From contig CAZAZD010000005.1 in the NCBI GenBank assembly GCA_964489535.1, forward strand, positions 895 to 64,894: a stretch of DNA of 64,000 nt, written 5' to 3'. The position numbers were made by a program, and so were the translations under genes. Numbering within the stretch: position 1 is the stretch's first letter; each line of letters begins with the position of its first letter. The stretch comes from an uncultured Isosphaeraceae bacterium (GTDB lineage: Bacteria; Planctomycetota; Phycisphaerae; Phycisphaerales; SM1A02). This document shows, piece by piece, positions 55,239 through 55,613 of this stretch. The notes beneath the pieces are model-generated. The model ran no database searches, was not told the origin of the DNA, and was given only the letters and a program-made list of their open reading frames with translations.

Positions 55239-55558
55239 TGGAGCCGATCGGGCTCGCAGTCAAATTGCCGCAAGGCAATCCGGACCCGAGCAAGTTGCTG
55301 CCGAAGGCAGCAGAGTGACGGCGCAGCCGGCACGCGGATCCACGCAGCAAAGAAGAAAGCAAGACGGAGTCTTGCTTTTTCGGAGCGAGTGGAGCCGATC
55401 GGGCTCGCAGTCAAATTGCCGCAAGGCAATCCGGACCCGAGCAAGTTGCTGCCGAAGGCAGCAGAGTGACGGCGCAGCCGGCACGCGGATCCACGCAGCA
55501 AAGAAGAAAGCAAGACGGAGTCTTGCTTTTTCGGAGCGAGTGGAGCCGATCGGGCTCG
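55239..55558. repeat. Perfect 151-bp tandem repeat (2 full units plus an 18-bp partial third unit that is the 3-prime end of tRNA-Ala)
   Basis: Units at 55239-55389 and 55390-55540 read as identical. Each begins with tggagccgatcgggctcg, the same 18 nt as 55541-55558 inside the tRNA. Confidence 0.95.
55500..55531 (-). terminator. Bidirectional terminator-like hairpin just downstream of tRNA-Ala (duplicated at 55349-55380)
   Basis: GCAAGAC-gga-GTCTTGC is flanked by an A-rich run on one side and TTTTT on the other. Confidence 0.5.
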
Positions 55559-55613
55559 AACCGACGACCTCTTGCATGCCATGCAAGCGCTCTCCCAACT
55601 GAGCTACGGCCCC
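55541..55613 (-). tRNA. tRNA-Ala (anticodon GGC)
   Basis: The reverse complement folds by hand into a cloverleaf: GGGGCCG TA GCTC AGTTGGGA GAGC G CTTGC ATGGCAT GCAAG AGGTC GTCGG TTCGAGC CCGAT CGGCTCC A. The G3:U70 identity pair is present. CCA is not encoded. Confidence 0.95.

Follow-up and report, generated by a model that had tools for sequence, protein, structure and literature searches.

The 64,000-nt stretch analysed here, hereafter the window, belongs to contig CAZAZD010000005.1 of an uncultured Isosphaeraceae bacterium and carries a perfect 151-bp tandem array directly behind its tRNA-Ala(GGC) gene, which is likely to be a tRNA-linked repeat (TLR), a tRNA-derived non-coding RNA module. 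TLRs have been treated in E. coli and its relatives (PMC8144298), where their definition, given by Stenum et al. 2021 (PMC8144298) after Egan & Landy 1978 and Rudd 1999, asks that the last 18-19 bp of the unit repeat, without a difference, the 3' terminus of the tRNA or rRNA that precedes it; E. coli possesses 22 such units at 10 loci, with 1-5 units per locus (PMC8144298). The array of the window lies immediately downstream of tRNA-Ala(GGC) and in the same orientation, both of its units end in an 18/18 identity to the tRNA 3' end, and the two tandem units of the window, as well as the one or two of its relatives, fall within the range of 1-5. A further feature, which belongs to the curated RtT consensus and lies outside the published TLR definition, is also present, namely a tRNA-identical end that closes a multi-helix junction. 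With the expression of TLRs by read-through the window agrees in layout only (tRNA, terminator with an interrupted U-tract, unit). Because all structural hallmarks are found and only sequence homology fails, the array is considered to represent an independent family of the TLR kind.

Anatomy of the unit and covariation with the parent tRNA

The array and its parent gene comprise the following features.

55541-55613, minus strand: tRNA-Ala(GGC), called by ARAGORN and by the Rfam tRNA model (62.8 bits), with G3:U70 and without an encoded CCA
55541-55558, minus strand: core copy 1, the last 18 nt of tRNA-Ala, identified by its sequence
55390-55540, minus strand: putative TLR unit 1, 151 nt, delimited by Tandem Repeats Finder (TRF), a repeat finder and the fold, with core copy 2 at 55390-55407
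55507-55529, minus strand: terminator-like hairpin of unit 1, from a terminator scan of the tRNA strand, AAAGCAAGAC-TCC-GTCTTGCTTT, then CTTCTTTGCT
55390-55494, minus strand: cloverleaf of unit 1, 105 nt, scored at 95.7 bits by the covariance model CM R1 and backed by covariation
55239-55389, minus strand: putative TLR unit 2, 151 nt, same sequence as unit 1 (TRF, repeat finder), with core copy 3 at 55239-55256
55356-55378, minus strand: terminator-like hairpin of unit 2, from the terminator scan
55239-55343, minus strand: cloverleaf of unit 2, 95.7 bits with CM R1, minimum free energy (MFE) -48.7 kcal/mol, z = -2.5

TRF describes positions 55239-55558 as 2.1 copies of a 151-bp period with 100% matches and 0 indels. 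The core 18-mer TGGAGCCGATCGGGCTCG occurs three times in the window (starts 55239, 55390 and 55541), against 0.01 occurrences expected by chance, and three copies were reached by 0 of 100 shuffles. In tRNA orientation the 18-mer spans T-loop C56 to discriminator A73, and unit 1 begins one base past the discriminator on the same strand. The cores are separated by a 133-nt spacer, a single-locus sequence within the 64 kb, with a G+C content of 59% compared with 46% for the window. A previous sequence-only reading had described the locus as tRNA, core, X, core, X, core, with X standing for this spacer, identical in both copies like the three cores, richer in G+C than its surroundings, and holding a terminator-like hairpin and two further hairpins. 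That description is borne out throughout: the layout by ARAGORN, Rfam and TRF, the identity by the exact match of the 151-bp units, the composition by the values given above, and the hairpins by the presence of all three, with the terminator called by the scan.

Unit 1 is composed, in this order, of the tRNA trailer CTCGCTCCGAAAAA, the terminator hairpin, a U-rich linker, and the cloverleaf ending in the core copy. Units of eight species were folded (species are denoted by letters, with A for that of the window, or by L-numbered contigs), and the MFE folds of those of A, B, G and E gave one common closed four-helix junction. The shared fold consists of the trailer (CTCGCTNCGAAAAA), the terminator hairpin with its interrupted U-tract, and a four-way junction of approximately 105 nt. 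The sequence of the terminator hairpin varies between species while the hairpin itself is retained; since its U-tract is interrupted, the terminator is probably leaky. The closing helix of unit 1 pairs UGGAUCCG (55486-55493; in unit 2 at 55335-55342) with CGGCUCCA (55390-55397) and encloses three hairpins: hairpin 1 of 19 nt, hairpin 2 of 17 nt with a variable triloop, and a long hairpin 3, whose base is formed by GCUCG paired with CGAGC, the five T-loop bases with which the core opens. The UGGAUCCG motif is kept in every carrier spacer, with the variants UGAAGCCG in G and UGGAGCCG in H. As the complement of CGGCUCCA, the last 8 nt of the unit, it is a mimic of the tRNA acceptor 5' strand, which it also resembles in sequence (GGAUCCG versus GGGGCCG), except that it carries A3:U70 where tRNA-Ala has the identity pair G3:U70.

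The covariance model CM R1 was built from five species, with E, L022 and D held out; it recovers these three at 46.6, 35.6 and 23.1 bits, respectively, and over the 64-kb window finds only the two array copies. In an alignment of eight distinct sequences, fitted to the model structure, 93.7% of the cells pair, compared with 79.7% in shuffles and at most 44% when the partners are slid. Double-sided, compensatory changes are present at 15 of the 30 pairs, a number reached by 0 of 500 shuffles, and they affect six of the seven pairs of hairpin 1 and five of the seven of hairpin 2, whose shape is kept under wholly different sequence. Pairing in the closing helix UGGAUCCG:CGGCUCCA reaches 91% over the eight species, RNAalifold independently yields the same helices, and the window copy folds better than its shuffles (z = -2.5). 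At 3:70, each of the eight sequences has A:U and none the G:U that alanyl-tRNA synthetase needs; because A3:U70 is invariant, the module RNA is most likely a non-chargeable tRNA mimic.

The link to the parent tRNA concerns core bases 56-60, which are those of each species' own T-loop (CGAGC in A and B, CGAUC in G and E, CAAGC in L022), and whose partners vary along with them (GCUCG, GAUCG and GCUU, with E uncompensated at base 59). In hairpin 3, the partner of T-loop base 59 makes a C:G pair where the tRNA has G and an A:U pair in three of the four species with U, and in L022 A57 is matched by U; in L127, which lost its core, the motif decayed to GUACAUCCG. Judged from these alignments, the unit is a constrained RNA-like structure, and its spacer and the parent tRNA's T-loop evolve together. 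For the E. coli units we found neither the constraint nor the co-evolution reported.

When the spacer was aligned locally with the tRNA-Ala body, the best score was only 17 (D-arm/anticodon-stem region). In B, G and H, a stretch of approximately 10 nt ahead of the core looks similar to the 5' strand of the T-stem, which may hint at a longer original duplication.

Several other candidates were rejected. Open reading frames (ORFs) of 121-130 aa span the array, but 151 is not a multiple of 3, the unit lengths of 151, 148, 144, 155 and 159 nt have no 3-periodicity, and translations from a conserved GTG part ways, by eye, after Met-Asp-Pro, so that a small protein was discarded. A protein-binding palindrome at the conserved GGATCC is not kept in G and H, which have GAAGCC and GGAGCC, respectively: there the pairing with the core is kept and the palindrome lost. 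A primer-binding-site-like complement for a retroelement was dismissed on the grounds that the 18 nt end at the discriminator without CCA and that no reverse transcriptase is located nearby. The Rfam matches ar9, psbA-3' and AS-pc01 (E 0.2-3) are terminator look-alikes far under threshold.

Distribution among related Phycisphaerales

The array is surrounded by housekeeping genes only (folP-like, trxA, M24 peptidase, DUF7133/HEAT/cytochrome c, PqiA and GlmS), and the lack of an integrase nearby, pointed out from the sequence before, was confirmed. The folP-like gene and trxA are located upstream, and the M24 and DUF7133/HEAT/cytochrome c genes downstream, all on the tRNA strand. The features flanking the tRNA and the array are listed below.

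55638-55955, minus strand: trxA, thioredoxin of 105 aa, directly upstream of the tRNA (Pfam PF00085, E 4e-34)
53805-54953, minus strand: M24 (Xaa-Pro) aminopeptidase, the downstream gene (Pfam PF00557; homologues in Phycisphaerales/Phycisphaerae)
54954-55238, no strand: AT-rich spacer from the array to the M24 gene, context outside the TLR (repeat finders)

With the M24 gene as anchor, the trxA-tRNA-M24 interval was taken from approximately 20 related species. Relatives keep trxA, tRNA-Ala and M24 in this order, and GlmS-x-folP-trxA-tRNA-M24-DUF7133-PqiA is the conserved gene order around them. By its M24 homologues, the bacterium of the window belongs to the marine Phycisphaerales, phylum Planctomycetota. 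This comparison of the locus with its relatives, which the sequence-only reading had proposed, revealed homologous units between tRNA-Ala and M24 in at least eight Phycisphaerales species: B (L004, L005 and L007), D (L010), E (L012 and L013), F (L106), G (L111), H (L116), L016 and L022. In B, E, G, L016 and L022 the homologous spacer leads into another copy of the tRNA 3' end; in D, F and H the second core has diverged from the tRNA. Arrays of two complete units, 100% identical within each array, have periods of 151 bp (window), 148 bp (B), 144 bp (G) and 155 bp (E); the most distant carrier, L022, with an M24 identity of 66%, has 1.6 units of 159 bp with one mismatch. The core starts at C56 in all carriers, intact cores equal the T-loop variant of their own species (CGAGC, CGATC or CAAGC), and the 18-nt identity to the tRNA 3' end also holds in B, E, G and L022.

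On the M24 tree, species with and without the module are intermingled, and the basal branch carries it, which fits an old element that was often lost. L018 and L127 retain just the first 85 nt or so of the spacer; a remnant of this kind would be expected if a full unit had crossed over with a truncated one, of the type seen in L022. The trailer and terminator are also found in relatives without a second core (L017, L018 and L122).

In species F and H the layout is tRNA-T1-unit-T2, as at rrnB of E. coli. Their second core (L106 1201-1360; L116 1105-1270) has the shared variant CCCGCATCCCCYTCCA and is followed by a second trailer and terminator, 47/48 and 61/62 identical to the first; the core has thus drifted next to a terminator copy that is almost unchanged. 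Species C and L015, which are without the module, share a long hairpin of approximately 45 nt (GGGTCTGGCA...TGCCTGACCC) behind the tRNA (L008 2765-2830 for species C, L015 2735-2800), and since they are not sisters on the M24 tree this suggests that an intergenic 'allele' was exchanged between species.

Competing explanations and unit number

Several observations weigh against the assignment of the array to the TLRs. About half of the related species do without the module, which is therefore dispensable. It has no sequence homology to the E. coli TLRs: the Rfam RtT model (RF00391) is silent on the array, at E <= 1 over 5 kb and at E <= 10 over 321 nt, though the same model works on E. coli, scoring 133-138 bits on four E. 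coli units. The cloverleaf is not called a tRNA either by ARAGORN, which calls one tRNA only, or by Rfam, whose tRNA model has no match on the units at E <= 10. A terminator separates the tRNA from each cloverleaf, and a promoter scan of the locus found no promoter-like site adjoining the units on either strand, so that expression depends on an assumed read-through. Fold stability hardly differs between the strands (z = -2.5 sense, -3.0 antisense), and the evidence from G:U pairs is mixed, with hairpin 3 of A pointing to the tRNA strand and the closing helix of G to the opposite one. Finally, the alignment used for covariation holds only eight sequences and was fitted to the structure that it supports.

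The most serious competitor, although unlikely, is a neutral tandem duplication, in which the units would be a decaying partial tRNA pseudogene, multiplied by slippage or unequal crossing-over and without RNA function, and the hairpins would be incidental or serve only as extra terminators. The patchy distribution is in line with it, as each carrier has a close non-carrier relative, and so are the drift of the distal core from the tRNA in D, F and H and the presence of other variable tandem repeats in the same intergenic region. It does not account for the compensatory changes by which hairpins 1 and 2 keep their shape with different sequences, nor for the A:U at 3:70 in all eight sequences. 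Moreover, the acceptor-mimic motif is kept from the window to L022, over a distance of 66% M24 identity, and decays only where its partner was lost (L127).

An antisense small RNA gene appears improbable. The plus-strand transcript would start near the complement of the core and comprise a reverse-complement cloverleaf, a purine-rich linker and, as its end, the same hairpin, which is a bidirectional terminator and on the plus strand is followed by an uninterrupted run of 5-6 U. On that strand the fold is as stable or more so (z = -3.0; also in G, F, D and E), and the A.C mismatch in the closing helix of G turns into G:U. Against it, no conserved promoter-like sequence is located upstream on the plus strand, where the flank past the distal core is unrelated between species, whereas the tRNA is what is conserved upstream of every unit; bidirectional terminators are also found in relatives lacking the module (L122). 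G:U pairs in the terminator stems, read by eye on the tRNA strand in B, H and the TLR-lacking L017 and L018, favour the tRNA strand together with hairpin 3 of A. The assignment of the strand from G:U versus A.C pairs was nevertheless dropped, as the species contradict each other.

Integration of a mobile element has even less in its favour. According to this explanation the array would be an attachment (att) site scar or a miniature integrative element, the cores being attL/attR-type sites of a tyrosine integrase with the tRNA-Ala T-loop as its target, and the 133-nt spacer would be the remnant of the element, multiplied by re-integration or unequal recombination. Tyrosine integrases reportedly leave direct repeats of tRNA 3' ends that start in the T-loop, and such repeats are thus a known integrase product; in addition, the core is partly palindromic, and unrelated GC-rich organisms bear tRNA-Ala 3'-end duplicates 140-160 bp downstream. 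However, the gene order is conserved without integrase or cargo, only 133 nt lie between the cores, and the spacer starts with the native tRNA trailer and terminator, which are also found in L017, L018 and L122 where core 2 is lacking. The divergence of the spacer appears, in loci aligned by eye, to track that of the species, and the spacer covaries with the core; this pairing constraint counts against an att scar, which would not need it. At 5S rRNA genes, which are also followed by E. coli TLRs, there is no integrase target (PMC8144298).

Searches for a partner element pointed in the same direction. The unit has no match in phages, plasmids and viral contigs. A degenerate search with the 18-nt core in 2.9 million viral contigs gave five matches, by a rough estimate about the chance number, all in a GC-rich coding-like context with no tRNA nearby, and they were rejected as attP. 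Of the three origins that the sequence-only reading had offered, neither a scar of integration and excision nor an amplifiable landing pad is supported: the unit is inherited at one locus down to 66% M24 identity, integrase and cargo are lacking, the spacer is constrained to pair with the core, and neither spacer nor core gave a convincing phage, plasmid or viral match in the search for an attP-bearing element that the reading had suggested. It had also held that a tandem array fixed in distant relatives with no matching mobile element would count against its interpretation and favour a structural or terminator role, and such an array in relatives is what was found. Its third suggestion, a tRNA-linked structured RNA module, is supported and matches an already described class, the TLRs of E. 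coli (PMC8144298). Short tRNA 3'-end repeats without an integrase should thus not be read automatically as mobile-element scars.

The number of units differs between otherwise identical sequences. The JGI contig L001 is 100% identical to the window across more than 9 kb of flank, yet has one unit; contigs L002 and L003, also 100% identical, end inside the unit, and numerous contigs of other species stop at this locus too. L012 and L013 show the same one- versus two-unit difference, and in three species altogether, contigs that are identical otherwise differ in having one unit or two, in agreement with the recent event or ongoing homogenisation that had been read from the identity of the copies. 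Two-unit arrays are found only where the core still equals the tRNA (A, B, E and G) and not in D, F and H; the copy number probably changes via unequal recombination. Since copy numbers were derived from short-read assemblies, two is a minimum, and a credible one because the junction of spacer end, core and spacer start assembles only if at least two units are present in the reads.

That the second unit was made by the assembler from a single real one, for which the one-unit L001, the two contigs that stop inside the unit and a period near the short-read length could be cited, is the least probable explanation of all: assemblers collapse exact tandem repeats and do not invent them, the junction exceeds the 18-nt core and must therefore be in the reads, breaks inside the unit are the product of an unresolved cycle of at least two copies, and independent two-unit arrays with other periods come from three other species and from different projects (L005, L012, which is an NCBI metagenome-assembled genome, and L111). 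TLR-type arrays also break or collapse short-read assemblies.

Other repeats were noted around the array. In the spacer before M24 a 30-bp sequence is repeated in tandem (x2, 55124-55184), with the palindrome TGGGGACAGTCCC on either side (55110-55122 and 55222-55234). The 11-nt palindrome GKGAC-N-GTCMC (GGGACNGTCCC or GTGACTGTCAC) is present in eight copies in the window versus 0.1 expected (positions 28853, 44403, 44438, 48688, 48775, 55112, 55224 and 62854), all between long ORFs, and looks like a dispersed intergenic element family similar to repetitive extragenic palindromes (REP) or operators; the copies at 44403-44448 lie within sequence related to the 47-nt repeat of L111. Tandem repeats based on this palindrome precede M24 in the window (30 bp x2, 55110-55234), in three contigs of species G (47 nt x3, x4 or x2 in L111 1300-1450, L112 and L114) and in species H (31 nt x6, L116 1260-1435), and their differing numbers imply that copy number varies there too.

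A metagenome scan for two cores 139-169 bp apart returned only six loci. One of them (L105 6363-6841) is protein-coding sequence with many CCCGATCGGCTCCAT-type 15-nt repeats, unrelated to tRNA, and was rejected. In L100 (1430-1602) and L103 (371-543), from a GC-rich organism, an rRNA-spacer tRNA-Ala(TGC) is followed by a GC-rich insert of approximately 105 nt and then by a repeat of the last 46 nt of the tRNA and 8 nt of trailer, a layout that is TLR-like or att-like. In L102 (5418-5574) and L104 (1109-1282), from unrelated GC-rich organisms, the last 14-17 nt of tRNA-Ala(GGC) are exactly copied 143-160 bp downstream; L104 has a third, degenerate copy about 150 nt further, and each of its spacers opens with its own terminator. 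These loci give hints that TLR-like layouts are widespread.

Proposed mechanism and comparison with known systems

For the array as a TLR, the following course is proposed. The module would go back to a duplication that took in the tRNA gene, at the least its 3' part, together with the terminator. It would be transcribed from the tRNA promoter via terminator read-through and then set free by the enzymes acting on tRNA 3' ends, a course also proposed for the E. coli TLRs. The 18-nt identity may be upheld by gene conversion or unequal crossing-over with the tRNA, and the same exchanges would gain or lose whole units, which could explain the 100% identity between units. We infer both the transcription and the function of the module.

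The planctomycete family, independent of that of E. coli, has the same hallmarks: an 18-nt tRNA 3' end, a period of approximately 150 bp, a preceding terminator and copy numbers that change by whole units. Their occurrence in two lineages argues that the layout is a solution arrived at repeatedly and did not arise by accident in a single lineage, and provides comparative evidence on the old open question of the TLR role. A far more speculative extension, which we put forward as an outside chance, is that TLRs form a recurrent, phylum-spanning class of tRNA-derived mimic RNAs, each kept in register with its parent tRNA by gene conversion. Equally tentative are its corollaries, that each such RNA folds by pairing its tRNA-identical 3' end with an imitation of the acceptor 5' strand, and that in this clade the invariant A3:U70 gives a non-chargeable look-alike of tRNA-Ala. 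If this were true, the look-alike might titrate the machinery of the tRNA 3' end (RNase P, RNase Z and the CCA-adding enzyme) or toxins directed at the acceptor stem, or report on them, and unit-wise changes in copy number would provide a control of dosage.

The closest known system is that of the E. coli TLRs, first described in 1978 (Egan & Landy), of which the RtT/rttR units of tyrT-tyrV constitute Rfam family RF00391. They are located behind tRNAs and also behind 5S rRNA (rrA/rrB/rrF); at rrnB an 18-bp repeat is spaced 150 bp, and the TLR lies between T1 and T2 and is made by T1 read-through, while the TLRs of tRNA operons have no known function (PMC8144298). Like them, the units of the window lie just downstream of a stable-RNA gene on the same strand, match its 3' end in their last 18-19 nt, come as one to several tandem units at a spacing of approximately 150-180 bp (151 here, 150 at rrnB, 178 at tyrT), have a terminator between parent gene and unit, and vary unit by unit in number from strain to strain. 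The tyrT-tyrV locus was examined and consists of an array of 178 bp x3.1; complete E. coli genomes have 0, 1, 2 or 3 RtT units behind tyrV, with spans of 425, 603 and 781 bp corresponding to 1, 2 and 3 units. In both systems the tRNA-identical end and its upstream complement close a multi-helix junction, which in the Rfam RtT consensus is likewise closed by the tRNA-identical 3' end. No terminator follows unit 2 of the window, which ends in core copy 3. The two systems differ in their host (Planctomycetota versus Enterobacterales), in the parent tRNA, here Ala(GGC) without an encoded CCA, and in the identity between units, 100% here and about 95% in E. coli; the array of the window, known from its sequence, has a covariation-backed three-hairpin cloverleaf and no tpr-like small ORF.

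With the attL/attR sites of tyrosine integrases and their integrase-less, cis-mobilisable remnants, the array shares direct repeats of the tRNA 3' end from the T-loop onward and cores in a row. It differs in the absence, in the searches, of an integrase, cargo or attP partner, in its vertical inheritance, and in a spacer that is composed of the native trailer followed by an RNA-like structure pairing with the core.

The small RNA (sRNA) 3'ETS-leuZ is a demonstrated sRNA sponge. Similar to it, the module would be a non-tRNA RNA that stems from a tRNA primary transcript and is freed by tRNA-processing nucleases; in contrast, 3'ETS-leuZ is a short, unrepeated trailer without a tRNA 3' end copy or cloverleaf, and its role is demonstrated where that of the module is sequence-based. 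In E. coli, 3'ETS-leuZ is a small RNA of a tRNA operon (PMC8144298).

Genuine tRNAs and their pseudogenes resemble the module in having four helices ordered as acceptor, D, anticodon and T arms, a closing helix of 7-8 bp, a middle hairpin of 17 nt and, in the 3' 18 nt, the sequence of tRNA-Ala; the module covariance model aligns end-to-end to real tRNA-Ala genes at 13-16 bits. A bona fide tRNA was nonetheless rejected, as the tRNA models are silent, no D-loop or T-loop motif is conserved, the 3:70 pair is A:U in 8/8 sequences, and only the four-helix topology is shared. The module, approximately 105 nt long, has triloops in hairpins 1 and 2 and A3:U70 instead of G3:U70, and, unlike those of tRNA pseudogenes, its stems evolve by compensatory change.

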